52,734 nucleotides of DNA, from the IMG/VR virus record IMGVR_UViG_3300036795_000123, positions 1-52,734 of that record. The stretch is one strand, 5' to 3'. Position numbers and translations under genes: made by a program. How positions within the stretch are numbered: the stretch's first letter is position 1; each line of letters begins with the position of its first letter. Under the pieces are notes generated by a model. It did not search any database. It saw only the letters and a program-made list of their open reading frames with translations, and was not told the DNA's origin. Shown in pieces: positions 9,294 through 40,409 of the stretch. Origin of the DNA: a virus (taxonomy: Duplodnaviria > Caudoviricetes).

Positions 9294-9338
9294 AGGCCCC
9301 CTGTCCTACCGCGCACAGTAGGCAGGGGGTCTTTTTTT
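9294..9338 (+). terminator. Rho-independent terminator
   Basis: AGGCCCCCTG/CAGGGGGTCT stem with inner CCTAC/GTAGG, followed by T7. Confidence 0.8.
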
Positions 9339-9864
9339 AGAGGGTGTCGCCTATAGAAGCCATGGATATAAGGCTTCCGTTAGCATCTTGAACGAATAGG
9401 AAGAGGGTATAGTCCGACATGCCAAACCATAGGTAGTTCCCATTGCTTAAGGGCAGCGGTGCAGGGCAATGGCCTGTCTCTTGAACCAAGCCGTTAGGAT
9501 CGCGCACGGATAACTGCACCCACCCTAAAGTGTGGTTAGACGCTGTACCTTGGTTTGCCTCGATCCACGCTTCCAAATGCGCGTTGGCATCTGCGGGAAA
9601 CCCGGTGTTTGCGTCGTTGCTTCGCCCGCTACTAAACCCAGCGTAATTATTGAACCAGCTCCCATCCGATACAACTCGGGCATCCGAGGGAACGGTGTTC
9701 GGATCCTGGGAGGTCCAGCCGTAACCGACATCGGTAAACTCGCGCGCACCACACCTTAAAATTGTGTTGGCGTCCGCCGTGGCAGCATCCGTGGTGGTGG
9801 AAGTGTCGCTAGAACTACCGCAAGCCGTGATGGCGAAAACAAGGCTGAGAATTACGTACCGCAT
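9337..9864 (-). CDS. Lipoprotein
   Basis: MRYVILSLVFAITA-C lipobox followed by a Ser/Thr linker. Confidence 0.8.
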   Translation of the reverse strand: MRYVILSLVFAITACGSSSDTSTTTDAATADANTILRCGAREFTDVGYGWTSQDPNTVPSDARVVSDGSWFNNYAGFSSGRSNDANTGFPADANAHLEAWIEANQGTASNHTLGWVQLSVRDPNGLVQETGHCPAPLPLSNGNYLWFGMSDYTLFLFVQDANGSLISMASIGDTL

Positions 9865-9896: not shown

Positions 9897-10184
9897 CTAG
9901 GAAATCTCATCCTGGGCCTGAAGGCGTCGACGTGCAATTTCTTTCCACAAAACCATGGCATAATTGTGGGCAAGTTGCGCGTTGGCGGGAGCTGGGTTAG
10001 TACGAAAACCTGACCCTGTAATCAGTGTTTGCATGAAAGCTATGGAAGCCCTTTCAATGAAAGCGTCGTAATGCGTGTCAGGCCCTAGTAGCTTGTTTAC
10101 CTCGCTGCAGTGCCAGCCCCCTTTTTCTTGAAGAATCTTGCGGGCCTCTTTTTTCAACTCGGATGATGCCTGGTAGTCAGTCAT
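9897..10184 (-). CDS. Hypothetical protein
   Basis: GGAGG RBS; ATGA coupling. Confidence 0.6.
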   Translation of the reverse strand: MTDYQASSELKKEARKILQEKGGWHCSEVNKLLGPDTHYDAFIERASIAFMQTLITGSGFRTNPAPANAQLAHNYAMVLWKEIARRRLQAQDEIS

Positions 10185-10402
10185 GGGTTCATCACCTCCC
10201 ACATGCGTTTGGGTAATGTGCGCAAGTTGTAGTGGGTGCCTTTCTTGGTGGCTTTGTCCCACGCTCGACGCCAACGCACACACTCAGCTAAGTAAGCGGC
10301 CACCTTTAAGGTTTCTTTGGATGGCCCTATCGGGAAACTGAATGCCCCATACCCCCAATCGACAATACCTGCACGTGTTTCAAGAATTTCTTTTCTCATC
10401 AC
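10181..10402 (-). CDS. Hypothetical protein
   Basis: Coupled ORF. Confidence 0.55.
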   Translation of the reverse strand: MMRKEILETRAGIVDWGYGAFSFPIGPSKETLKVAAYLAECVRWRRAWDKATKKGTHYNLRTLPKRMWEVMNP

Positions 10403-10839
10403 TACCTCTTCTCAAAAATGTCTATGAAGCGCGCCACGATATCGCCGTCGCGCTGTAGGCCACCGCGCTTGACGATGACTTCCACGCGGTTCCCGTGAAT
10501 TTCTAGATCTGGTGTGCGCGGGAAGAGCGCCGGGTCGAGCAGCGCCAGGTGGTTGACCGTGGGGGTTTCCGTGCCGGTGAACACCGTGCGCGCCGCAGCC
10601 GGGGCAAAAACCAAACCACCTAGGCTATCATCCCGCACCGTCAAAAACCCGTCCCGGGTGGCTTGGTTCGCAGCGCTGTCCACGAGGTGGCACATGTCGG
10701 GCTCAAGTTCGCAGCGGTAGGTGACCGCCGGGGCCGGTGGTGGGAGCATGTGCGCGCACGCGCTAAGAGCGAGCAGAGGTAGAGCGATAGCTTTCATTTT
10801 GACTTTAACGATCCTTGTGTTGGAATTATTCCCGGTCAT
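10402..10839 (-). CDS. Putative lipoprotein (alternative start 10797)
   Basis: MKAIALPLLALSA-C lipobox. Confidence 0.65.
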   Translation of the reverse strand: MTGNNSNTRIVKVKMKAIALPLLALSACAHMLPPPAPAVTYRCELEPDMCHLVDSAANQATRDGFLTVRDDSLGGLVFAPAAARTVFTGTETPTVNHLALLDPALFPRTPDLEIHGNRVEVIVKRGGLQRDGDIVARFIDIFEKR

Positions 10840-11408
10840 GTGCGCACGAAACCAACATCTTTGAAGGCGTTCGCGAACCGAGCGATGGCCGCGTCGTTAT
10901 CTGTGCTGGGAGGGAGGTAGACCACCACCGGCGCGTGGGATGGGTTTTTGCTGGGCCCTTTGACGCTATCGAATCCGAAACGCTCGCGGGGCACCCAAAA
11001 AGGGAACGCTTGCGGGGGGGCCATGGGTAGGCATTGGCCAGTCTGCATAATCTCGATCGAGAATCCCACAAAGATGGCGTGGCGAAACTTCCCGACCGCC
11101 CATTCCCGCACGGTGCGTTTCCAGAAGAGCGCGGCCGATGACTCGCCGCCGATTTTGCCGCCAGGTGGGTTGATGAACACGGAATCTACCCGGGGCCATG
11201 TTCGTTCTAGAGCGTCTTTTTCCCAGTAGACGGTGGCGTTGACGCGCGATTCCCCGAATCCGTCGCTGGCCGGATCGAAGTCTATGGTGCCGCCTAGCAC
11301 CTCGGTGGCTTTCTCTATCAGCCACACGGGCGTGTACCATAGCGAGGTTTGCGACAGATGCTTCGCATTCATGTCATCGTCCGGGGTTTTTTGACAAGCT
11401 TGACGCAT
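10836..11408 (-). CDS. Phage Dam-like N6-adenine DNA methyltransferase (start 11372-11408)
   Basis: WYTP, IDFDPAS, DAL and VFINPPG motifs (NPPY variant). Confidence 0.8.
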   Translation of the reverse strand: MRQACQKTPDDDMNAKHLSQTSLWYTPVWLIEKATEVLGGTIDFDPASDGFGESRVNATVYWEKDALERTWPRVDSVFINPPGGKIGGESSAALFWKRTVREWAVGKFRHAIFVGFSIEIMQTGQCLPMAPPQAFPFWVPRERFGFDSVKGPSKNPSHAPVVVYLPPSTDNDAAIARFANAFKDVGFVRT

Positions 11409-23183: not shown

Positions 23184-23428
23184 AATCGGGCGTTACGTGG
23201 GCTGACTTTTGGGAGCATGACTACTACGAGGTGTCTCTCTACATACGGGCCTACAACGCACGCATGATGAAGCTGTTAGAAATCGGAGCGTTTCAGGTGA
23301 TGCATATTTACCGCGCGTTCACCGGCGATAGCGTTTCGATCGATCAGTTGCTTGGGCGTGGGACGCGCATCGATCTTGTAAACGACCCTATGGCGGCGAA
23401 TAGGCTGCGGGAGGTGGCGGATGGGTGA
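23060..23428 (+). CDS. Tail assembly chaperone GT extension via -1 frameshift
   Basis: The -1 frame is open from the slippery heptamer to 23428 (...GVTWADFWEHDYYEV...). Confidence 0.75.
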   Translation, partial: FFGPGQKGKVSNRGEGSESEGEGGCEESPDEQWDRYVIGGLESGVTWADFWEHDYYEVSLYIRAYNARMMKLLEIGAFQVMHIYRAFTGDSVSIDQLLGRGTRIDLVNDPMAANRLREVADG

Positions 23429-26129
23429 AACATACGATGCTGGCACACTTACCGCCGAGCTGGATCTCGATTCCTCCAAGCTAAACAAAGGGGCGGAAGA
23501 TGCGAAGAAGAGCCTAGAAGATGTTGAGAAGTCCGCCGACAAAACGGGCGAGGCTCTTAATACGCTAGCGGAGATCGGCGAGGCTTTAGGACTTGCGGAA
23601 ATATTTTCGGTTATCAAAGAACAGGCGAATGAGTGCATAAAGGCGTTCGACACTAACGCTGCAGCGCTGCGCACCATGTCATCAATGGTCAAAGACGTGG
23701 ACGTGGGGAAATTCACGGAGCTGGCCGAGCAGCTTAGTGCGGTGTCGCGCAACTCGGTCGCCACCGAGATGACTACCGTATCAATGATGAGCAAGTTTAG
23801 TCTCACCGATCGAACCATCGCGACGTTGCTCCCGAGCGTTCAAAACTTCGCCGCAGCGATGCGCGAAGATCTTCCCAGTGCTGCGCAACGCTTCACCATG
23901 GCAATCAGCTCGGGGGAAGCCTCGGTGCGTCGCCTGGGAATCAATTTAGGCGAGCAAGGAAGGGCAGCATTTAAGGCCGCAGATGAAACCGGCCGGTTAA
24001 GTATCATCATGCAAGCCCTATCGAAATACAACGGGGCCGCGGCGGAGGATGCGAAAACAGCATCGGGCGCGCAAGCGAGCATGGCAAAAGCATCGGAAGA
24101 GTTGCACGCGGCGATCGGCGGTATCATCGATCAGCCCGTGGCTTCTTTTTTCAATACGGCCGCCGAGGCAATAAACGTGGTTACGGGGTACATCAAAGAA
24201 CTTTCGCCCGCAACGAAAGAGTTTCTCGGCTACGCCGTATCTATCGGCACAACGCTTGCTTTGTCTGCGGTAGGATTCGGGGCTGTTAGCAAAGCGGTGA
24301 GCGTGTTGGAACCTGTTCTAGCCCCCTTGGCGGAATCTTTTTTAGCATTGATGGCCCCCTTAGTAGCAGTGGCTGCGGCGGCGGTGGCGGTGGCTGCGGC
24401 GTACGGCTCGATTCGAAATGCCATGGAAGGGAAGTTTGGAACGAGCGTTTTAGATGGCCTGAAGATGGGCCTTCAACGTGCTGTTGCCGATGCGAAAGAG
24501 CAACTCAGTGGCTTTATGTCAGCGGCAAAGGGCGCGGTCGGCGGCGCGGTCGGGAAAAAGTCAGAAGGGCCTGCAAAGCCTGGTGAGTTCGACAACACAT
24601 CGCAAGTAAAGAAGAGCATTGATTTTTCCGAGGTCGGCAAATTCGGCACGGATAAATCGACGGGCGTCGATCTGGGTAATGGCGTCATGGATTTCAGTAA
24701 AAATCTAGATGATGCGCAAAAAGCCTGGAAAGCTAAGATGATAGCGACGGCCGACAGTGTGGCAAAAAGCTTCAACGCTACCGTCGACGCTAACGCAGAT
24801 CTTCAAGAGGCTTTTGCCAAGCAACAGGATGCACAAGAAACCGCGGCCACGGCGGTAGGTGGGATGTGGACGCAACTGCTTCAAAACAAGCTACCGGGAA
24901 CGGCGGGGGCGGGCGGTGCGGCCCCACCTCCTATCACGGCTACGAGTGCGGCGGGGGCCGGGGTGCAAGCCGCATCCGGGGGCATGGGTTTAGCCGGATC
25001 TATGATGGGCTCTTTTGCGCAGGGCACCGCAGCCGGTGGCCCTATCGCGGGCGTTGCCGCCGCAGCGGGCACGCTGCTTATGCAAAGCACGGCGTTTCAA
25101 AAAATCATGGGCCTGATTAACAAGTTGCTAACGGTGATCATCCAAGCCATCAACCCTATCCTAAGCGCCGTGCTCCCCGCGCTTACGGTACTCTTAGGCG
25201 CGGTGAGCGCCGCAATCAAAAGCGTCGTTGCAGCAATGCAGCCATTGATGGCCCCGATCACAAAACTAGTCACGACGGTTATGCTCATCATCCAACCGTT
25301 CATCAACCTGGCCACGCAACTTTCCACGCAGTTGATGCCCATCATCACGAAAATTTTGACGCCGGTTCTTAACGCGCTCTGTACGGCGCTCATGTTCCTA
25401 GCAAAATTCGTCATAAACGGTATCGTCAACCCGCTCATTCATGTGTGGAATGCCATTATCGACATGATCGACGGGCTTTTGGGATGGACCGGCCTAGACT
25501 TGAGTAGTTTGAAGTTGCATACGGTTTCGCTGAATACAAACGCGGACGCCGTCGACGCCGTAACAAAGTCCATGAACGATCTGGATCAGTCTTCACAAAA
25601 TATCCCGCAAGGTTTCAAGGTGGCGTTATCGGCCTATAATGCTACAGGGTTGATAGACACTCAGACACCAGCAACGCCGGGGATCCCCGATGTAAGCGGG
25701 GATAATGTTATCGCAGAAATTACGGCCCTTACATCATGGCTACAAACTCAACCTAAAGGCACTACCGTAGCGTCGAGTGGTTTTGTGAGCTCAGATCAAC
25801 TCGCGCAACAGTATGCCCAATCGGGGGGGATAATGGGCATACATTACACAGCGGCTACCACCCCGGGTGGCCCCTTGGGGTGGACTTCCGATAATACTAC
25901 CACTACGTCTTCTGGGACCGCCGCAACGACAAAAACGGCGATGCGTTCGAACCTCGCAATGGGTGGCGGTAATGCGGGGAGCGCCATCAACATTCAGAAT
26001 GTCATGGTACAGGCCGCGACACCCGATCTCATAGGTCAGATCCAGAGTGCCTTGAAGAACCAAGGCTATCTGAAATCGGGAACGCCTCTTTCCGGGGCCA
26101 CTAACCGTTTTCAATACGGGAGCGCCTAG
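23421..26129 (+). CDS. Tape measure protein
   Basis: 902 aa, helical and Ala-rich; GTLTAELDLDSS start; 11-aa periodic hydrophobic repeats. Confidence 0.92.
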   Translation: MGETYDAGTLTAELDLDSSKLNKGAEDAKKSLEDVEKSADKTGEALNTLAEIGEALGLAEIFSVIKEQANECIKAFDTNAAALRTMSSMVKDVDVGKFTELAEQLSAVSRNSVATEMTTVSMMSKFSLTDRTIATLLPSVQNFAAAMREDLPSAAQRFTMAISSGEASVRRLGINLGEQGRAAFKAADETGRLSIIMQALSKYNGAAAEDAKTASGAQASMAKASEELHAAIGGIIDQPVASFFNTAAEAINVVTGYIKELSPATKEFLGYAVSIGTTLALSAVGFGAVSKAVSVLEPVLAPLAESFLALMAPLVAVAAAAVAVAAAYGSIRNAMEGKFGTSVLDGLKMGLQRAVADAKEQLSGFMSAAKGAVGGAVGKKSEGPAKPGEFDNTSQVKKSIDFSEVGKFGTDKSTGVDLGNGVMDFSKNLDDAQKAWKAKMIATADSVAKSFNATVDANADLQEAFAKQQDAQETAATAVGGMWTQLLQNKLPGTAGAGGAAPPPITATSAAGAGVQAASGGMGLAGSMMGSFAQGTAAGGPIAGVAAAAGTLLMQSTAFQKIMGLINKLLTVIIQAINPILSAVLPALTVLLGAVSAAIKSVVAAMQPLMAPITKLVTTVMLIIQPFINLATQLSTQLMPIITKILTPVLNALCTALMFLAKFVINGIVNPLIHVWNAIIDMIDGLLGWTGLDLSSLKLHTVSLNTNADAVDAVTKSMNDLDQSSQNIPQGFKVALSAYNATGLIDTQTPATPGIPDVSGDNVIAEITALTSWLQTQPKGTTVASSGFVSSDQLAQQYAQSGGIMGIHYTAATTPGGPLGWTSDNTTTTSSGTAATTKTAMRSNLAMGGGNAGSAINIQNVMVQAATPDLIGQIQSALKNQGYLKSGTPLSGATNRFQYGSA

Positions 26130-26133
26130 CCTC

Positions 26134-27672
26134 GTGCCTTTTTTGACCATCAATGGTGTAACCGTACCCACCTCGAAAGACGGTGGTACGATCGCGCGCA
26201 CGCTCTACGGCGAGTACATGGCGGGCTACGACGGTACAGCCCAAATCGATGTCCGATCGCGTAAGAAGGTTTGGGATTTCAACACCAAGCCGATCGACCC
26301 CTTGCGCTCACAAGCGCTCGTGGGCTTGATCGAAGGGAACGGGTTGTTGTTCCCGTACAACGGGAATTTGTACGCCAGCAATGGCCTCGGCCCAGCGACA
26401 ACGACGGGAACAACTTTTCAAAACTTTACGGCTGCGGATGGTGCCACCGTTTATGATGAGAATGGCACGGCTATGAGCCAACAGGCTCTAGCTAGTACAA
26501 GTTCTTTGCAAGCGGATATTGGAACGACGAATACCATCACACAAGCCCAAGCAACATGTTCTGCCACCACCGGTTTTCAAGTTAACGGTGGATCTTCTAT
26601 GGCTGTAGATACGACGCATTTTTGGGAAGGAACGAATGCGATCAAGGTGACGCCGGTAGGATCCGGATTTCAGTTTCAATTGAATTCGTCGCAAACTGTT
26701 ACGAGCACCACCGCGATCTGGGTTGCATCGGCGTACATTTATAGCTCGGTTGCTGCCACCATATCGATAAGTATCGGCCCTAGTTCAGGCGGCGGCGGCG
26801 GGACGATAACTTTCTCTCACACGGGTGGTTACTGGCATCGGGTTTTTACTTTCGGGACAATGAGCGTAATTAGCGCCACGATCATCGTGTTTTTCAAAAC
26901 AAGCAACACGTCGGCCCCTTTTTGGGTGGATGGTATTCAGCTTGAAAATTCAGGGGTGCTTGCTAGTTCTTACGAAACCCCCACAGCATGGCAGAATCCT
27001 GGCAGCGGTGCGCGTGCAGCGAGTAACCTCACTTACAGCGCGAATCTAAGCTCGCTCGGTGGTTTTACCGTCGCAGGGTGGTTGATGGACGCCCCCCTTA
27101 CGCCAACGGGGTTAACTCAAGTTTTGTTCAACGCAAACAATGCTATCGAGGTCCTGATACAAGTCGTTTCCGGGAATCAGACCCTTAATTTTTCGACCGT
27201 TAGCGATGCGGGGACCGGGGACAATTTACGTTGGACCATTACTACGATCCCCCTTTATGGGTTTTTTGTTTGTACGCTGAACGTCAATCCCGTATCAGGG
27301 CAGCCCACGAAAACCATCTACTGGAATGGCGTGCTCGTGGCGTCGAGCACGGCGACGAACTATCCCGTAAATAACACCATCACGGCGTTTTCTGTAGCTA
27401 GTGCGACAGGCAATTGCTTCAACGGGCGCATCAACAACCTGCAGGTTTTACCGTACGCCATCGATCAGTTTTGGGTGTCCGGGATGTACGCTGCGGCCGC
27501 TTTGAACGCTGGTGCCACACCGTTGTTGACCATGAGCGGCTCGTGCATCAACTACCAGTTTAAGCAAGTCTACGGGCAAGTCAAAAAAGAGGATTTCGTG
27601 GGGTTTAGAGATCCTGTTATGGGCTGGATATCGCAAGGCCGAAAACTCAGCATTATTTTGACGGAGGTGTGA
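26134..27672 (+). CDS. Distal tail (Dit-like) protein with inserted carbohydrate-binding and LamG-like domains
   Basis: Follows TMP; FWVDGIQLE (CBM-like) and IYWNGVLV...FNGRINNL (LamG-like). Confidence 0.65.
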   Translation: MPFLTINGVTVPTSKDGGTIARTLYGEYMAGYDGTAQIDVRSRKKVWDFNTKPIDPLRSQALVGLIEGNGLLFPYNGNLYASNGLGPATTTGTTFQNFTAADGATVYDENGTAMSQQALASTSSLQADIGTTNTITQAQATCSATTGFQVNGGSSMAVDTTHFWEGTNAIKVTPVGSGFQFQLNSSQTVTSTTAIWVASAYIYSSVAATISISIGPSSGGGGGTITFSHTGGYWHRVFTFGTMSVISATIIVFFKTSNTSAPFWVDGIQLENSGVLASSYETPTAWQNPGSGARAASNLTYSANLSSLGGFTVAGWLMDAPLTPTGLTQVLFNANNAIEVLIQVVSGNQTLNFSTVSDAGTGDNLRWTITTIPLYGFFVCTLNVNPVSGQPTKTIYWNGVLVASSTATNYPVNNTITAFSVASATGNCFNGRINNLQVLPYAIDQFWVSGMYAAAALNAGATPLLTMSGSCINYQFKQVYGQVKKEDFVGFRDPVMGWISQGRKLSIILTEV

Positions 27673-27675
27673 TCG

Positions 27676-29070
27676 GTGCGCGTGCTTACCGCTAACCAGT
27701 CACACATGCTCGGGCTCACTTCAAGGGCAACGCACGTCGACGTGCAGGTTTATAACACCACCACCTCGGCTTGGGTGTCGCTGCGTTCGCTGCTCGGGCA
27801 GAATTTCATCCGCACGGTGTCGTGGACAGATGATATAGACAACCATGGGGCCACCGCCACGATCGTGCTCGATCGTAATCAGTACTTTAAGAACCTCGCA
27901 AACCTCGTGCAGACATTTCAGGTTTGGGGCACGTATGGCATTTTGATAGATCTGAACATTCCGATCAAGATCTTCGCTGCCGTGGTCCCGCAAGGCATGA
28001 CGCCCGCCGCCGCGGATTGGATGGAGGTTTTCTACGGGCGGATCTATTCGACGGACTGGGCCACGAATGAAATGCAGTTGCAGTGTAGGGATTGGATGGA
28101 TCAGCTACAAAGCCTATGGATAGAGCATTCCTACGGTGTCATTGACGCTGCTCCATCGGGGCAGTCTTCGCAAAGCATTATGCAGGCGTTGCTAAACGTC
28201 GTGGCTGCGTACACTGGCGCGGGGCTCGTGTTGACCACGGTGTATAGTGTGAACGGCACGGTCATCACGCCGTTTTTAACGGGGAGCGCGCCCGACGATC
28301 CGGGTTGGGCTATCGCGTCAACAGATCCTTATCCCACGTCGCTCATGACAGTTTTTACTTCGCTCGACAACATCAACCAACAAATAGGCTGGTGTCTGCG
28401 ACAAAAGTTCAACAGCAATATTAACGGATGGGCGTTGACGTGGTACGATCCGTTACGCACCAACGTCACACCCGCATGGACGTTCCCGCAGTCTTTCATA
28501 AAAACCGTGTCCACGTGCGGGCTACACATCGGTGATATCCGTAACGTCATGCAACTCTGGTATTACGATTTCGACAACAACGCCTTGGCCACCGCAGTGC
28601 AAGGGCAGGATAGCGCTTCGATCACAAAGTACGGTCGCCAATTTATGCAGATCGGGGCCGACACCACCAAGGGAATTACAGGCAACACGCTCGCGTCAGG
28701 GCTGACAGATTTTCAGACCATGCTAAATTCGGCTCTGTCAGATCTCTCTCAGCCCAACATTGACTACGTGGTGGAGGTGCCTCTTTTCTACCCAGTAGAA
28801 TTGAACGATATCTACACTTTCAGTGCCGATAACTACCATTTCAGTGCCGATCAGACCCTAGCGTGTATCGGCTACACCCACACGATCGACAAAGGACAAG
28901 GCATCACGTCGCTGCAAATGCGCGGCAAACCGTCGAGCGGGATATCGCGGTGGTTCAACCGGCAACAGTTGAGTTTCACAAAACAGCTAGGTGTCGTGAA
29001 CATGAACACCAACACCACCACGAGCGACCTACACCCTAACTCTAACTTAGGGCAGTATTCGAGGTTCTAG
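27676..29070 (+). CDS. Baseplate hub/Tal-like tail tip protein
   Basis: VFYGRI, CRDW, IRNV, DSASITKYGR, VELND motifs. Confidence 0.7.
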   Translation: MRVLTANQSHMLGLTSRATHVDVQVYNTTTSAWVSLRSLLGQNFIRTVSWTDDIDNHGATATIVLDRNQYFKNLANLVQTFQVWGTYGILIDLNIPIKIFAAVVPQGMTPAAADWMEVFYGRIYSTDWATNEMQLQCRDWMDQLQSLWIEHSYGVIDAAPSGQSSQSIMQALLNVVAAYTGAGLVLTTVYSVNGTVITPFLTGSAPDDPGWAIASTDPYPTSLMTVFTSLDNINQQIGWCLRQKFNSNINGWALTWYDPLRTNVTPAWTFPQSFIKTVSTCGLHIGDIRNVMQLWYYDFDNNALATAVQGQDSASITKYGRQFMQIGADTTKGITGNTLASGLTDFQTMLNSALSDLSQPNIDYVVEVPLFYPVELNDIYTFSADNYHFSADQTLACIGYTHTIDKGQGITSLQMRGKPSSGISRWFNRQQLSFTKQLGVVNMNTNTTTSDLHPNSNLGQYSRF

Positions 29071-29922
29071 ATGGCATCGCAGGCCCCGCCGGATGGATGG
29101 ACAGTAACGACGGGCACGTGGAACACGGGCATAGGCCAGTCCACGACGCAAGCGTTGAACGCAGCGAGCTCGGTGAATATCACGGCGGCGGGGATCGTGT
29201 TCGTCGGGCCCTGGATCCCTCTCAGCTCTTACAACCCGTACCCGCCGGGCTCTTTGACCACGACAACGTACCAGCAAACATACACGCCAAGCATTTTTGT
29301 TTATGGCGACAACGCCTCCAACAACGTGTCCGTCACTTTCGCATACTACGGAGCAAGCCGAATTTCGCCCCTCGCCACGCCTCTTTCTTTGATGACGGGA
29401 GCCCCCGCAAACCTAAATGTGTGGAGCAAGTATTCAAAATACATTGTGAATAACTTGCATGCCGTGTGGGGGAGGATTGAAATCACATCTAACGTGGGGC
29501 ACACGGGGAATTTCTACATTGGCGGATCGTCCGTGCTCGCGAGCGCACCCGCTTTCACAGCGACCGGATCCGCACCAATAACCCACGGCGTTAATACGGC
29601 TGTGTCTATGACCACCTTATCCGGGAATCTTGTGGGGTTATCCGGCGGTGATATTTTATTGAGCGACTCGGGCTTTTGGGGTTTTTCTGTTTACATGTCA
29701 TGGAGCGTAACGCAAACGTCGTGGACCGTGGATATTTTCAATGTTACAACTGGTGGCGCAGTGGGTGGCGGAGGTCCTGTAACCTTTGCCGGACAATTTG
29801 CTTCATGGTCATGTGCGGCGCTCGTGCAACTCAACAACCCGCAGTCTTTGCTTACGTTGCGACTTAACCCGGCTTCGTCCGGGACTTGCTCTATTGTTTG
29901 GGGTGGTACTTACTTGCGTTGA
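29071..29922 (+). CDS. Tail tip/receptor-binding protein
   Basis: PPDGW carbohydrate-binding-like start; beta-rich. Confidence 0.55.
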   Translation: MASQAPPDGWTVTTGTWNTGIGQSTTQALNAASSVNITAAGIVFVGPWIPLSSYNPYPPGSLTTTTYQQTYTPSIFVYGDNASNNVSVTFAYYGASRISPLATPLSLMTGAPANLNVWSKYSKYIVNNLHAVWGRIEITSNVGHTGNFYIGGSSVLASAPAFTATGSAPITHGVNTAVSMTTLSGNLVGLSGGDILLSDSGFWGFSVYMSWSVTQTSWTVDIFNVTTGGAVGGGGPVTFAGQFASWSCAALVQLNNPQSLLTLRLNPASSGTCSIVWGGTYLR

Positions 29923-29936
29923 GGAGAAGAAAAAAC

Positions 29937-30401
29937 ATGGTCCTAGCACTTTTAGCAGCGCTCTCGGTAGGTCAAGCCCTTGGCAGTCTTAGTGACGGGC
30001 CCGTGGCATGGATGGACACGAATGTCCTAGTCACCCAAAACGGCAACGCCATCGTAGCCGCTCCTTTGAACGTCACGATCACGACAGACAGCATCAAAGT
30101 CAAAGGCTACCGGTGGGTGGAATGGGCCATTCAATACGCGTGGTCGGCCGCCAGCGCGGTGACCATGACGTGTCAGCAATCCGAAGACAACGTGGTGTGG
30201 CTCGACATTCAGGCGCTGCAATTCGTTTCTTTTCCCACCGCTACCTCGGGGAAGATGCTGTGGAGCGAAGCGGTAAGCGCCTCGGGTAACTGGCCCTGGG
30301 TGGTTCCCAATCATAGCGTGTTCATGCGTTGCGTTTTCAACGGCACGGGGGCGTCATCGTCGGACAAGCTGACAACCCTAAAAGCCCGAGCGGGGATCTA
30401 A
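29937..30401 (+). CDS. Jelly-roll virion-like protein with putative signal peptide
   Basis: GAGGAG RBS; MVLALLAALSVGQALG; QQSEDNVVW.D; Cys pair. Confidence 0.6.
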   Translation: MVLALLAALSVGQALGSLSDGPVAWMDTNVLVTQNGNAIVAAPLNVTITTDSIKVKGYRWVEWAIQYAWSAASAVTMTCQQSEDNVVWLDIQALQFVSFPTATSGKMLWSEAVSASGNWPWVVPNHSVFMRCVFNGTGASSSDKLTTLKARAGI

Positions 30402-30402
30402 G

Positions 30403-31632
30403 ATGAAGCCCATGAAGTTGCTCATGTGGGGCCTGGTTCTTTCGGCATGCCTGGGCACGATCGCCGTCGCGCAAGTGCCGCACGATCCTTCCTCTTCCCA
30501 AGATTACGTGGCGTTCACGGTGAGCGGCGGTAACGCGGTCACCAGCGTGGGCATGACCGTTCCGTCCATCATGTCGGTGGCGGGGTCGCCGGTGACATCG
30601 AGCGGGACGCTGGCGGTGTCGCTCGCTACCGAGAGCGCCAACACATGCTTCGCGGGGCCGAGCAGCGGGAGCGCGGCGACGCCTACCTTCCGCGCCCTCG
30701 CCGCCAACGATATCCCGGGGACGCTGAACGCCACCGCCGCGCCATCGTTTACGGTCAACCCTAACACGGGGAGTTTTACATTCGTGGGGAGCACAGCGTT
30801 CACCGCGCCAGCGAATGGCACCGCGCAAATAACGAAAGCCGATGGGACTTTCGCGACGCTGTTATTCGGCGCTGCAGGTTCTACGACCGGCGTTAAAATT
30901 ATCCCTGGAAATGCTACTTTGACGATCACGGATGGTGCCGGTGGGAGCACTGTTCAATTGTTAGTTACGTCCGCATCTATTTCGACACTTACTCCCACTG
31001 TGATTAATGTCGCAAATGGTAGCCTTGGCTCATCTGCCTCACCGGTAATTCGTCAAAACGCCGTACAGACTTCGGGAATGTATTTTCCTTCTACCACTGC
31101 CGTAGCACTCACGAGCGTTGCGGGAACCGGTGGGACAATTCAGCTATCGGGTGTCAATACGGGAGCGATGACATTTACACAGGCGACGGGCACGTTATCG
31201 GGGCCTGGGTTTTTGTTCAATGGGGCCGTTGAGGGGATGTCGAAATTCTCCATCGCGAACAATGCCAACGTAGTGTTGACCGCAGCGCAATCCGGCTCAC
31301 ATATCACCAACATCGGCGCGGCCGGTGGAGTGCAAGTGACGCTACCCGCACCCGCGAAGGGGCTCAATTTCACCATAAAACAGATCGCCGGATTCGCTAT
31401 GAACATAATCACGCCATCGGGGACCATTCAATCAGGCGCACTAACTACCGGTACTACACGGGTGATTTCTGGGAGCGCGCTCGGGGTACTCAGCATCACG
31501 TGCGAAGATGGGACGAATTGGCATGCCGATTATGCCTCGGGCACCATTACTTGGCTGGGCTTCGACAACGTGCCGCCTGAGTACATGCCGGCTGTAAATA
31601 CGGATCGTGAAGAAAAAGAAGTTGCTGCTTAA
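30403..31632 (+). CDS. Tail-fibre-like protein with Sec signal peptide
   Basis: MKPMKLLMWGLVLSACLGTIAVA-Q; VTSVG...GSPVTSSGTL...FAGP.SG..A.PTFRAL..NDIP fibre motif. Confidence 0.65.
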   Translation: MKPMKLLMWGLVLSACLGTIAVAQVPHDPSSSQDYVAFTVSGGNAVTSVGMTVPSIMSVAGSPVTSSGTLAVSLATESANTCFAGPSSGSAATPTFRALAANDIPGTLNATAAPSFTVNPNTGSFTFVGSTAFTAPANGTAQITKADGTFATLLFGAAGSTTGVKIIPGNATLTITDGAGGSTVQLLVTSASISTLTPTVINVANGSLGSSASPVIRQNAVQTSGMYFPSTTAVALTSVAGTGGTIQLSGVNTGAMTFTQATGTLSGPGFLFNGAVEGMSKFSIANNANVVLTAAQSGSHITNIGAAGGVQVTLPAPAKGLNFTIKQIAGFAMNIITPSGTIQSGALTTGTTRVISGSALGVLSITCEDGTNWHADYASGTITWLGFDNVPPEYMPAVNTDREEKEVAA

Positions 31633-31647
31633 AACCAAAAGGAGATC

Positions 31648-32292
31648 GTGATCATGAAAAAGTTCATTCTCGCATCGGTGGTTTCGTTGTTCACCATGGC
31701 GGCTTACGCGCAACCCCTGCCCCCCTTGACCGGCCCGTTGTTCCCGCTCAACTCCGCCGGCAACCCCAACATGGGGACGTTCGTGAGCCCGTTACTCGGG
31801 TTGAACGGGAACGCGGCCGCGCCGGCCTACTCGTTTTCGCTCGACCACAACAGCGGGTTGTATTCATGCGGGACGGGTTGCCTCGGTTTCACCGTGAACG
31901 GCAACAACGTGATGACCGTCAACCCGAACGGCGCGGTGACGCACTTCGCGAACGTGATCGCGGAGAATGCAAACTACGTCATCAACCCCAATCAAAGCGC
32001 CACGGAGTTCACCAATTTCGGCACGGCCGCTGCTATCACCGGGACGCTCCCGCAGTGTACCGCGGCCAACGTGGGTATGAACGTGCGATTTACCATCGCG
32101 TCAGGGTACGCTTTCGCACAGCAAGTGCTGTTTAACGCTGCTGATATCGTGAGTGCGCCCGGCATTTCGCAGACCACGAAAACGGCGCTCTACAGCCCCA
32201 CCACCGCGGGAGCGACCATCGGGGTGGGCTGCTACGCCGTAGGGTTGTGGCGCATCACGAGCGCCCCCACCGGGACGTGGACCGGGAACTAA
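31648..32292 (+). CDS. Tail-fibre-like protein with Sec signal peptide
   Basis: MKKFILASVVSLFTMAAYA-Q; GNAAAPAYSF..D..SGLY fibre motif; AAGGAG RBS. Confidence 0.65.
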   Translation: MIMKKFILASVVSLFTMAAYAQPLPPLTGPLFPLNSAGNPNMGTFVSPLLGLNGNAAAPAYSFSLDHNSGLYSCGTGCLGFTVNGNNVMTVNPNGAVTHFANVIAENANYVINPNQSATEFTNFGTAAAITGTLPQCTAANVGMNVRFTIASGYAFAQQVLFNAADIVSAPGISQTTKTALYSPTTAGATIGVGCYAVGLWRITSAPTGTWTGN

Positions 32293-32301
32293 AAGCGACC
32301 C

Positions 32302-32457
32302 ATGGTAACCATCCGGCTGTGGGTGCTGTACATGATCGGGCTCGCGGGAGCGTTCACGGTCATGGTGGCTTTCATAGCGGGGTGGTACATGGGATACGTG
32401 GTGGGCGATCGCGAAGGGCATCAAAAACAACGACGCGAACGAAAGAGGCTTCGATGA
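32302..32457 (+). CDS. Small membrane protein with basic C-tail (holin/antiholin-like; not in ORF track)
   Basis: Read by hand: MVTIRLWVLYMIGLAGAFTVMVAFIAGWYMGYVVGDREGHQKQRRERKRLR. Confidence 0.5.
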   Translation: MVTIRLWVLYMIGLAGAFTVMVAFIAGWYMGYVVGDREGHQKQRRERKRLR

Positions 32458-32582
32458 TGTCGACAGCACGCACGGTTTTTGCATCGCCCCCCGCCATGAG
32501 CACACAGCAAGCCCAGATCATGGTTGCCACGGTGATTTTCTTTCTAGTATCTAGTTTGGTGAAATTCGCGGCCTATGGTTGA
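32454..32582 (+). CDS. Small membrane peptide
   Basis: ATGA-coupled; one TM; overlaps the endolysin start. Confidence 0.4.
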   Translation: MMSTARTVFASPPAMSTQQAQIMVATVIFFLVSSLVKFAAYG

Positions 32583-33057
32583 TCCAAACACGGCCGCGCA
32601 GCGCCTCATCCTAGCGCGAGAAGAGCACTTCGGGCCGATCGTGCGCGGTGCCTTCCGCAAGGCTGGGCTGCCCGTGGAATGGGGCATGGCCATCGCTCGG
32701 TTGGAGTCATCCTTCGACCCCACGCGCTCGGTGCGTACCGGGGCCGACGGCGCTATGGGGGGCGCGTGGGGTATCTGTCAGATGACCCTCCAAACAGCCC
32801 ACGACGAACTCAACTATAAGGGCGATGGCCCGGCGCTGCTCGATCCTACGCTGTGCTCCACCCTCGCGGCCCAGCTCTGTGTGCAGCACGTGAAGATCTA
32901 CGGGAGCAATTTCAAGGACATCGCCGCTACCTACAACGGGCGGTTTCCCTACGTGAAAGCCAACGCGCGGGCGCGGGCCTATGCTGACGCGGCGTGTCTT
33001 TTCGCTGCGGGCTACGCGGGTAAATTTGATGACGAACGCGACGCTATTGTGGCATGA
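32575..33057 (+). CDS. Endolysin, lytic transglycosylase (SLT family)
   Basis: AIARLESSFDP (catalytic Glu), GICQM, ATYNG. Confidence 0.85.
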   Translation: MVDPNTAAQRLILAREEHFGPIVRGAFRKAGLPVEWGMAIARLESSFDPTRSVRTGADGAMGGAWGICQMTLQTAHDELNYKGDGPALLDPTLCSTLAAQLCVQHVKIYGSNFKDIAATYNGRFPYVKANARARAYADAACLFAAGYAGKFDDERDAIVA

Positions 33058-39210: not shown

Positions 39211-39465
39211 TCACCGTTTTGTTGCCTCATCTATCGCAATCAAGGCTTCCGTCAACGTATCGAATTGGGTTTTCCACCAAATAAACGGTTTGGGTGTAAG
39301 CACGCTCCAACGCATGCCTGAATTACCGATACCACCGCCCTGAACAGCAAGGCCGCCTAACTCGATCGAGTATCCTTTGTATTCGATCGCGTTCGATGGC
39401 TCGCTATCCGGGCAATGAATAAGCGCGTACTGCTTAGGGCCCTTCCCGCGAAAAAACCAATTCAT
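39211..39465 (-). CDS. Hypothetical protein
   Basis: ATGA-coupled to the MTase. Confidence 0.55.
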   Translation of the reverse strand: MNWFFRGKGPKQYALIHCPDSEPSNAIEYKGYSIELGGLAVQGGGIGNSGMRWSVLTPKPFIWWKTQFDTLTEALIAIDEATKR

Positions 39466-40409
39466 TGCATCGCCTCATCTAGCAACGTGGAAAACGCTAA
39501 TGCTGCGGTGGCGGGAACAACGGCGTTCCCTAGCGACCTAAGTCGGTCCACCCGATGGGGAAGCCCATCAACCATTCGACCCACATCGGGCTCAGATTTC
39601 CACCACCCGTTCCTTGGGCACACGCTGCTACTTCGTCGTTTAGATTCCGACCCCCATGTTTGCTGCCGAAGCGACCCACCCTGGACCCATAACCCCTCGT
39701 TGCGTCGTGCGCTAAAGGCATTGGCCATAACTTCACAGCCGTTTCTAGCCCGTCCCCCGAATTCGGCGAAGCCCCCGCACGATTGTAGTTGCCGCTGATC
39801 GTCGGTGTCGGCCAGAGATTCTTCCGCGCCATGGATTCCAGACTGGGACGTATCTTCCCCACGCGTCCCGCCGTGCTGCCACGGTTGTCGCCGTATGATT
39901 GTGCGGTCGGTGTGGGCAAGTATGAAAAGCCGTTGTCGTAGGTGGGGCGCGCCGATTTCCGCTGCCGAGAAGATGCCCGCCGAAACGTGGTAACCCATTC
40001 CTTGAAGGTCTGCGCGGACTTGCTCAAGTCCGATGGACACATGTCCGGGGACGTTTTCAAAGAAGCATAAAGCTGGTTGGCACTCTGCGATGATTCGAGC
40101 GATGTGTGGCCACAAGTGCCGAGGATCATCTTCTCCCCCGCGTCGCCCTGCAACGCTGAAAGGCTGACACGGGTATCCCGCAGTAGCAAGATCCACGACG
40201 CCACGCCATGGCTTGCCTCGGAATGTCTTAACGTCATTCCAGAGAGGAGCCGGATCCAGTTCGCCTTTTTCCATGCGCGCGACAAGGCATGCGGCTGCGT
40301 ATCCTTCCCTCTCGACGTAACACACGGTTCGGTGAGGCACCATGGCGCTAATTCCGCGTTCAAGTCCCCCAATCCCGGCACATAAAGCCAACCCATTCAG
40401 CACCTTCAT
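39462..40409 (-). CDS. DNA cytosine-C5 methyltransferase (large subunit)
   Basis: LCAGIGG (I), GYPCQPFS (IV), FENV (VI), RQRLF (VIII), LGNAV (X). Confidence 0.92.
   Translation of the reverse strand: MKVLNGLALCAGIGGLERGISAMVPHRTVCYVEREGYAAACLVARMEKGELDPAPLWNDVKTFRGKPWRGVVDLATAGYPCQPFSVAGRRGGEDDPRHLWPHIARIIAECQPALCFFENVPGHVSIGLEQVRADLQGMGYHVSAGIFSAAEIGAPHLRQRLFILAHTDRTIIRRQPWQHGGTRGEDTSQSGIHGAEESLADTDDQRQLQSCGGFAEFGGRARNGCEVMANAFSARRNEGLWVQGGSLRQQTWGSESKRRSSSVCPRNGWWKSEPDVGRMVDGLPHRVDRLRSLGNAVVPATAALAFSTLLDEAMQ
39530..40396 (-). CDS. Nested alternative-frame ORF, probable second MTase subunit carrying motif IX
   Basis: 288-aa open frame inside the MTase; repeated (L/W)PTP; LSPMWVEWLMGFPIGWT; AAGGTG RBS. 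Confidence 0.7.
   Translation of the reverse strand: MGWLYVPGLGDLNAELAPWCLTEPCVTSRGKDTQPHALSRAWKKANWIRLLSGMTLRHSEASHGVASWILLLRDTRVSLSALQGDAGEKMILGTCGHTSLESSQSANQLYASLKTSPDMCPSDLSKSAQTFKEWVTTFRRASSRQRKSARPTYDNGFSYLPTPTAQSYGDNRGSTAGRVGKIRPSLESMARKNLWPTPTISGNYNRAGASPNSGDGLETAVKLWPMPLAHDATRGYGSRVGRFGSKHGGRNLNDEVAACAQGTGGGNLSPMWVEWLMGFPIGWTDLGR

Follow-up and report, generated by a model that had tools for sequence, protein, structure and literature searches.

Candidate Sec-exported, fiber-like proteins encoded between the tail and lysis genes of a tailed virus

The A-B-C locus

The viral record IMGVR_UViG_3300036795_000123, a stretch of 52,734 bp that was analyzed at its full length and is referred to here as the window, represents a whole virus with direct terminal repeats and is rated complete. 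It carries three consecutive genes, designated A, B, and C (Table 1), which follow the tail genes at the tight spacing of a late operon; the ATG of B lies 1 nt beyond the stop codon of A. An earlier reading, made from the sequence alone, had placed these genes between the tail and the lysis genes, and this position is borne out by the tape measure gene upstream and by the SLT-type endolysin gene downstream. In textbook accounts the assembly of tailed phages is wholly cytoplasmic. The products of the A-B-C genes probably mature outside of the cytoplasm, the compartment in which phage particles are normally built.

Table 1. Coordinates (in the window) of the A, B, and C genes, their subfeatures, and flanking genes
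Feature	Coordinates	Strand	Basis
Gene A, 154 aa; small, β-rich (jelly-roll-like) protein with a short hydrophobic N-terminus	29937..30401	+	Open reading frame (ORF), relatives, weak structure leads
Leader-like start of A, MVLALLAALSVGQALG; possible cleavage SVG/Q or ALG/S; no basic n-region	29937..29984	+	Sequence, relatives
Gene B, 409 aa; leader-bearing fiber-like protein	30403..31632	+	ORF, motif matches, relative P0027
Signal peptide of B, 23 aa; predicted cleavage AVA/QVPH	30403..30471	+	Own rule, hydropathy, comparison with P0027
Fiber repeat of B (VTSVG..GSPVTSSGTL..PTFRAL), residues ~36-107	30508..30723	+	PHROG 9625, 7e-9
End-domain copy of B, residues 273-386	31219..31560	+	B/C/P0027 alignments, hidden Markov model (HMM)
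Gene C, 212 aa; leader-bearing, fiber-tip-like trimer (predicted)	31654..32292	+	ORF, PHROG, trimer prediction
Signal peptide of C, 19 aa; predicted cleavage AYA/QPLP	31654..31710	+	Own rule, ribosome-binding site, hydropathy
Fiber motif of C (GNAAAPAYSFSLDHNSGLY and surroundings)	31789..31938	+	PHROG 14100; PHROG 28766 'tail fiber protein'
End-domain copy of C, with Cys135/Cys193	31927..32289	+	B/C/P0027 alignments, HMM
Tape measure protein, 902 aa; marks the upstream tail module	23421..26129	+	PHROG 5493 tail length tape measure, 8.7e-10
Three genes in tail-tip position (512, 464, and 283 aa)	26134..29922	+	ORFs; no leader-like start
Single-span membrane protein, 51 aa, with charged tail	32302..32457	+	Hydropathy 2.26; no family match
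SLT-type lytic transglycosylase (endolysin), without leader	32575..33057	+	Pfam SLT, 5.1e-8, above cut-off

Leaders of B and C

Leaders were called with a loose rule of our own. A type I signal peptide was expected to combine a basic n-region with an uncharged, hydrophobic core (about 7-15 or more residues), to place small residues at -3 and -1, and to be free of Pro between -3 and +1. The N-termini of B (MKPMK-LLMWGLVLSACLGTI-AVA/QVPHDP) and C (MKK-FILASVVSLFTM-AAYA/QPLPP) open with basic residues, continue with a core of 12-15 uncharged, hydrophobic residues, and have small residues at both -3 and -1; the first 10 residues of the mature proteins hold neither Lys nor Arg. The ATG of C (31654) is preceded by AGGAG at a distance of 9 nt. 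The sequence-only reading had assigned Sec-type leaders to all three proteins. The N-termini read as it had quoted them, and those of B and C follow the textbook n-h-c layout; that of A is the weakest of the three, with a short core and no basic residue. In a six-frame scan of the whole window, 66 of the 1842 start candidates passed the loose rule, and the longest hydrophobic cores among real genes were those of B and C. The hydropathy maximum (19-residue window) of A, B, and C falls at residues 1-7, and no stretch resembling a membrane span occurs later in any of them.

The only full-length relative of B is P0027 (578 aa, 36% identity, E 3e-48), which starts MKRMALLLTFMCFSANVLA/QVPNDP. The two leaders have diverged in the hydrophobic core but agree in the n-region and in the junction A-Q-V-P-x-D-P. 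The residue at +1 of the predicted cleavage site is Gln in B (AVA/Q), C (AYA/Q), and P0027 (VLA/Q). Since the small residues at -3 and -1 and the Gln at +1 are retained while the core drifts, we surmise that selection has acted on cleavage by signal peptidase I (SPase I) rather than on a structural helix. Export had been expected to show in hydrophobic N-termini among homologs, and the leader is indeed kept in P0027 and, for gene A, in 5/5 relatives. No relatives of C were found within its length range; P0214, which has the layout of mature C, is likewise leader-bearing.

Residues 13-16 of B (30439-30450) form a lipobox-like LSAC inside the leader. This motif is absent from P0027, and the possibility that B is a lipoprotein was set aside because of this lack of conservation; a SPase I cut at AVA/Q is the better reading of the predicted leader, and lipidation the less likely one. 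Type IX sorting domains (Por_Secre_tail, TIGR04183, TIGR04131) were matched neither by B and C in Pfam and NCBIfam nor by P0027 and P0214 in NCBIfam, and export through the type IX secretion system (T9SS), PEP-CTERM, or another sorting domain was rejected for want of any Pfam or NCBIfam domain match.

The anatomy of the leaders, their conservation in P0027, the Gln at +1, the lack of early basic residues in the mature proteins, and a conserved Cys pair in the end domain together support the view that B and C are made as Sec/SPase I preproteins, and we predict their export with good, though not full, confidence. In the alternative, the hydrophobic N-termini would not be used for export at all: B and C would fold and join the tail in the cytoplasm, with the helix acting as an anchor or assembly handle or being cut off by a phage protease. 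Textbooks describe such a route for every part of tailed phages, and the start of A, with no basic n-region, would accord with it. It also has a parallel in the phages of Porphyromonas gingivalis, in which major capsid proteins have predicted 'signal peptides' whose removal one study ascribes to the prohead protease (PMC10367356). For A-B-C we regard such a route as improbable. B and P0027 both keep small residues at -3 and -1 and Gln at +1 in spite of their divergent cores, Gln stands just past the core in 21/26 leader-bearing relatives, the early mature regions are free of basic residues, and the Cys pair of the end domain is conserved; moreover, trimers of this type can be exported by Sec, as the 21 phage-like fibers of Bdellovibrio demonstrate (PMC10769870).

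Fiber-like nature of B and C

The fiber motifs noted in the sequence-only reading were confirmed in that residues 36-107 of B, as well as C, match fiber families. The B region returned 579 protein matches, most of which, among the 120 listed, cover about 15% of B. A tblastn search located the repeat in 8 records, within annotated tail fiber or minor tail proteins of Achromobacter phage Motura, Ralstonia phage phiRSL1, and two cyanophages. The match of C to PHROG 28766 ('tail fiber protein') has an E value of 6.7e-5. No other fiber-like gene besides those of A-B-C was found in searches of the genome by PHROG, Pfam, and sequence comparison.

The C-terminal domain that B and C were said to share proved to be real, with 36% identity over 86 residues (E 1e-6); it measures about 120 residues and is common to P0027 as well. 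An HMM of this end domain, run over 3263 pooled sequences, recovered only B, C, P0027, and P0214, and all four carry leaders. In one profile search, which took all 578 columns of P0027, the fiber repeat dominated the resulting matches. The end domain terminates the protein in C, P0027, and P0214; B alone extends beyond it, with an extra acidic tail of 23 residues (residues 387-409, 31561-31629; …DNVPPEYMPAVNTDREEKEVAA). The Cys135/Cys193 pair of C is kept in P0027 and P0214, and three of the four members thus possess a Cys pair in the end domain. Cys pairs had been noted in the mature parts of the trio: those of A, B, and C do contain 2, 2, and 4 Cys, respectively, at a content that does not set them apart within this phage.

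The sequence-only reading had proposed that trimers be modeled. Three copies of mature C (residues 20-212) are predicted to form a homotrimer, with an ipSAE of 0.92 versus 0.00 for the best of 3 controls, a partner pLDDT of at least 88, and runs that share at least 93% of contacts. The ipSAE mark was calibrated on two copies, not three, and was reached by 21/30 solved one-chain pairs and 0/23 single chains; the pass for C can also reflect likeness to solved fibers. AlphaFold2 gave a poor monomer model of C (pLDDT 51.6, with the end domain at about 65), and the best Foldseek matches of this model were weak (E 2.7e-4 to 0.66, TM about 0.3) but without exception phage appendages, these being the capsid spike of Pa223, the baseplate of KP1, the N-terminal part of CBA120 TSP4, and T4 gp10. 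The Atlas lead for C agrees, pointing to phage appendages, and PDB sequence searches returned marginal matches only. The motifs, the trimer prediction, and the fold matches to phage spikes and baseplate fibers support a fiber-like nature for B and C, and the end domain is predicted to trimerize. No N-terminal particle-binding domain was recognized in mature B or C (QVPHDPSSSQDY... and QPLPPLTGPL..., respectively), in which the fiber motifs begin almost directly.

Gene A

The ATG of A (29937) is preceded by GGAG at 9 nt. An alternative TTG start at 29919, which overlaps the upstream stop codon, would add MRRRKN to the protein; the ATG is the likelier start because the purines at this place make up the ribosome-binding site, and because one relative has an acidic sequence there. 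Five relatives, at about 70% identity, all keep the start pattern M.LLA.L.AL.V.Q..GS.SDGP, that is, a hydrophobic segment followed by Gln. In the public gene call, A starts at Met26 (129 aa, P0122; 29937-30011 trimmed), which hides the hydrophobic N-terminus; Met26 is not kept in the relatives, and the longer form is the conserved one. The prediction that A is exported we consider evenly balanced.

The A-relative P0127 and the B-relative P0027 each occur on two contigs, the longest of which measures 33,376 bp for both. This shared longest contig suggests that the A-B pair is probably linked and travels together. Relatives of A and B sit on contigs of 33 kb and 51.8 kb, of which the former carries P0027 and P0127 and the latter (51,798 bp) P0126.

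The monomer model of A was poor (pLDDT 51.2). Foldseek, run with this weak model, listed jelly-roll and carbohydrate-binding modules of a generic kind, of which none reached an E value of 0.001, and a weak PDB sequence match was seen to the C-terminal domain of KP32gp38 (E 0.023). The Atlas places A among small viral jelly-rolls, including the XepA, DUF6385, and Bbp16 clusters (TM 0.60-0.74), which serves as a lead only. The Pfam XepA family did not match A at E values up to 0.1, and the Foldseek matches listed for the poor A model do not include XepA; a kinship of A with XepA is backed by the Atlas lead only, at TM 0.60.

Leader-bearing relatives elsewhere

The family proteins recovered in the searches that start with Met, with the window's own three left out, made a pool of 255. 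Of these, 26 combine a basic n-region with a hydrophobic core no shorter than 9 residues, although two look false by eye; Gln occurs no more than 5 residues past the core in 21 of these 26. A single leader-bearing member served as the seed for a metagenome scan, which may have biased the sample; of the 80 loci obtained, 79 contain the B repeat. A leader-like start is present in 20 of the 67 genes of these loci with a closed 5′-end. In three contractile-tail loci (L057, L060, and L064) the genes for the baseplate hub, wedge, and tail fiber are followed by a leader-bearing gene, and in L055 a DNA ejection protein is followed by a leader-bearing protein of 1086 aa that matches tail and tail-collar-fiber PHROGs. 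Three consecutive leader-bearing paralogues are encoded in L070, with an endolysin a few genes on, and L073 possesses three leader-bearing genes in a row. Scans of IMG/VR with B, with B plus P0027, with the 464-aa tail protein, and with the A alignment revealed no close relatives; a metagenome scan with A, a genome scan with P0069, and tblastn of C against phages were empty.

Several minor observations concern these loci. The mature N-termini of the paralogues in L070 (1999-4398) and L073 (3614-5941) are alike (…Q..VKLKQVE and …Q.RVAQKQVE), and the layout of three leader genes in a row is common to L070, L073, the window, and Cellulophaga phage phi18:3. In L064 (9989-11142) a second leader-bearing fiber-like gene appears to be split in two overlapping frames (9989-10684 and 10492-11142), which could be a frameshift or an assembly error.

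Leader-bearing proteins with the B repeat were also found in plain bacterial surroundings (L014, L048, and L077), and among the 13 loci from named genomes five have a leader by eye, namely two of Bacteroidota and one each of Kapaibacterium, Chitinophagaceae, and Acetobacteraceae. Repeat proteins in such settings would be the basis for viewing B and C as captured surface fibers of host type, i.e., auxiliary cargo that alters adhesion or the surface of the cell and has no role in the particle or in exclusion. The surface fibers of Bdellovibrio are a known case of this kind (PMC10769870). In the window, no integrase was found among the ORFs searched, and the opposite strand encodes a DNA polymerase, primase, helicase, exonuclease, and two DNA methyltransferases; with polymerase, primase, and helicase present and no integrase among those ORFs, the phage looks virulent. 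Genes that are tightly coupled to the late structural operon of such a phage would bring the host no gain before lysis, and a related, phage-sized contig seems to carry the A-B pair as well. We therefore rate capture of host fibers as very improbable.

Comparison with known systems

Cellulophaga phage phi18:3 (NC_021794) resembles the window in possessing three consecutive late leader genes (S/Q or A/Q), with a few small genes before the endolysin. The starts of their products are MKNKITIIMILMSISFGYS/Q (gp085), MKKTIYILSILLLTISGVSA/Q (gp086), and MKHTFSIVLFFILSIGLNA/Q (gp087). The labels in the record, 'virion structural protein', 'structural protein', and 'tail protein', respectively, derive from proteomics by tandem mass spectrometry (MS/MS), and the three proteins match virion, tail, and tail-fiber PHROGs; nine other MS-annotated proteins of phi18:3, when translated, showed no leader. 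This phage differs in that it is short-tailed and infects a Bacteroidota host, whereas the window phage is long-tailed. By analogy, the annotation of the phi18:3 trio as virion-borne would raise the likelihood that proteins of this kind are destined for the particle.

Llp of T5 and Cor of phi80, T1, and N15 are small exported lipoproteins, encoded beside receptor-binding genes, which block adsorption at the envelope. They differ from B and C in having a lipobox Cys and in being small, whereas C has no lipobox, the LSAC of B is unconserved, and both proteins are large and fiber-like. A lipoprotein of the Llp/Cor type was rejected for B and C, there being no conserved lipobox Cys at +1 and no small size.

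XepA of the Bacillus prophage PBSX is encoded between the tail and the holin/endolysin genes, produced late, exported, and reportedly absent from particles, and it is built of β-sandwich domains of about 110-130 residues and forms pentamers (PMC6834076). XepA, and likewise YomS of SPbeta, thus shares with the window genes the position between tail and lysis genes, the late timing, and the export, and the Atlas puts A nearby. It differs in being a pentamer from a single-membrane host, whereas B and C are predicted fiber trimers and not XepA-like.

On such precedents, A, B, and C might be exported and yet not be parts of the virion, acting late in the periplasm or envelope, either by occupying or masking the glycan or protein receptor, which would keep progeny and rival phages from being lost on debris, as does Llp of T5, or by assisting lysis, as has been proposed for XepA. 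The evidence from the leaders is identical for this reading and for docking on virions. Mature B and C are devoid of a particle-binding N-terminal domain, the A-B-C genes abut the lysis cassette, and XepA in the same position is exported and not found in particles (PMC6834076). The Atlas lead for A, near the XepA, DUF6385, and Bbp16 jelly-rolls, points the same way, and the upstream tail-tip genes could suffice for adsorption, given the weak match of the 512-aa protein to a carbohydrate-binding module. However, no leaderless paralogue shares the end domain of B and C, so that there is no sign of copying of the virion's receptor binder, and the genes belong to the late operon, not to the early genes, of a virulent-looking phage. 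The Pfam and Foldseek comparisons of A with XepA were negative, as noted above; a plain Sec leader reaches the periplasm only, with no T9SS or sorting domain found in Pfam or NCBIfam; and the analogous trio of phi18:3 is annotated as virion-borne. We regard an envelope role as rather unlikely, although it is the rival to be taken most seriously.

In the MAT family of Bdellovibrio bacteriovorus, each of the 21 phage-like surface fibers has a signal peptide (PMC10769870). Like B and C, the MAT fibers are trimers resembling phage tail fibers and carry a leader, and they function outside of the cytoplasm. By analogy they show that tail-fiber-like trimers can fold after Sec export. The MAT fibers differ in being chromosomally encoded by a predatory bacterium, in having a conserved anchoring domain of 130 residues after the leader, and in that many possess an S74 chaperone-protease; neither an anchoring domain of the MAT type nor S74 was found in B or C by Pfam search. 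The P. gingivalis phages encode five proteins of unknown function with Q-rule leaders, which may modify the outer membrane (PMC10367356). As with B and C, the predicted SPase I cut exposes Gln, which has been read as an adaptation to host secretion; they differ in that they are described only as unknown proteins. The targets of phage diversity-generating retroelements have no leaders (PMC6199706). Neither a description of leader-bearing tail fibers of tailed phages nor a discussion of the phi18:3 leaders was found in the literature, as covered by open-access papers and preprints.

Host

In Bacteroidetes, Gln occupies the +1 position of 71% of SPase I substrates on average (the Q-rule), versus mostly less than 20% in the related phyla compared; Ignavibacterium has a Q-value of 77%, and in Q-rule bacteria Gln at +1 marks genuine SPase I substrates (PMC5837995). 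Both firm leaders carry Gln at +1, which suggests a host whose Q-value is high. A Shine-Dalgarno core stands ahead of 22 of 50 starts, versus a background of 7%. Bacteroidia do not typically show such a frequency. The O-glycosylation motif D[ST][AILVMT] is present once in A and absent from both B and C, and an excess of Bacteroidota glycosylation motifs in these proteins was rejected on these counts. Shine-Dalgarno use and the lack of such an excess would argue against a typical Bacteroidota host.

A possible route to the virion

The route that we favor would run as follows. B and C, as homotrimers of the tail-fiber type, would be translated late from the structural operon as Sec preproteins and carried across the inner membrane, where SPase I would cut after AVA and AYA and expose Gln. 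They would then fold and trimerize in the periplasm, where the end domain could form its disulfide. A, presumably a small conserved β-sandwich protein with a short hydrophobic leader, would follow as their partner. Once the holin had opened the inner membrane, the periplasmic fibers would meet finished tails and dock, leaving the cell as appendages of the virion. Late docking is favored by the fiber-type architecture, the late operon of a virulent-looking phage, the lack of another fiber gene, and the case of phi18:3, and the divergence of B (36%) while A is conserved (70%) would fit a receptor binder. In the sequence-only reading the proteins might be exported, fold in the periplasm, and join virions at or after lysis, or else be displayed or released as adhesins or receptor decoys; export and fiber likeness are supported, and docking on virions is the destination tentatively favored.

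Several observations weigh against this route. The leader rule is crude, with 66 of 1842 starts passing, and the core of A, at about 11 residues, agrees with the core and -3/-1 rule yet comes without a basic residue. In Cys content A, B, and C are ordinary for this phage; the monomer models are poor (pLDDT 51-52) and yield fold matches with TM of about 0.3; and leaderless members of the family carry typical N-terminal domains that are absent from B and C. Sequence comparison detected no similarity between gp085-087 of phi18:3 and A, B, or C, so that the case is one of analogy only; the MS/MS label of gp085-087 is a record annotation, and exported proteins stuck to debris could co-purify with virions. 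The precedent of XepA, with its position, its export, and its absence from particles, would speak against a virion destination. To our knowledge, every well-studied leader-bearing protein of phages is a non-virion accessory. For the entire chain, from export and cleavage through the disulfide to docking on virions, our confidence is accordingly tentative and falls short of an even chance.

It is equally tentative that several lineages of tailed phages, including this long-tailed phage with its probably Shine-Dalgarno-using host, send their host-recognition fibers through Sec, with a SPase I cut, a pyroglutamate cap, a disulfide, a periplasmic trimer, and addition after the holin has acted. If the fibers were added only after the holin breach, this would amount to a two-compartment assembly line for tailed-phage particles. 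For their folding the fibers would then require Sec, signal peptidase, Dsb, and perhaps glutaminyl cyclase of the host, all of which would be new host factors and possible routes to resistance, and the holin would time the last assembly step. Such fibers could be disulfide-stabilized and blocked at the N-terminus, which would be relevant to their expression as reagents. Should the proteins instead stay on the envelope, they would constitute a new class of fiber-derived exported phage effectors. Gene callers that trim leaders, as occurred with gene A, would hide the signal. Both the virion and the envelope reading could be tested in the cultured Cellulophaga phage phi18:3.

Other genes of the window

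PHROG matches identified the large terminase (3.7e-83), portal (3.6e-99), major head protein (7.2e-36), major tail protein (4.3e-9), and a head-tail adaptor, a layout that, judged by these matches, is that of a long-tailed phage. No tRNA genes were found in the 52,734-bp window, and blastn against the phage collection revealed no relatives at the DNA level. The G+C content ranges from 53 to 63% across 2-kb windows.

The 512-, 464-, and 283-aa genes are possible distal tail, tail tip, and receptor-binding genes, named by position alone. Their products matched nothing in PHROG, Pfam, or NCBIfam, save for a sub-threshold CBM_4_9 match (E 0.022) in the 512-aa protein, whose gene (26134-27672) adjoins that of the tape measure; the product, perhaps a distal tail protein into which a sugar-binding segment is inserted, could be the particle's own adhesin. 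The 51-aa membrane protein is holin-like, by anatomy only. Between it and the SLT gene, a short ORF in another frame (32454-32582) ends in a hydrophobic stretch (…IMVATVIFFLVSSLVKFAAYG) and may encode a second small membrane protein of lysis. Two lipoprotein-like ORFs on the minus strand, 9337-9864 (MRYVILSLVFAITAC...) and 10402-10797 (MKAIALPLLALSAC...), lie between the terminase and portal genes and have no family match; their products may be exported and have an accessory role or act in exclusion. At 352-1944 a ParB-like domain is fused to a DNA methyltransferase (PHROG 498, 1.7e-71), and a second methyltransferase, of the cytosine type, is encoded at 39462-40409.

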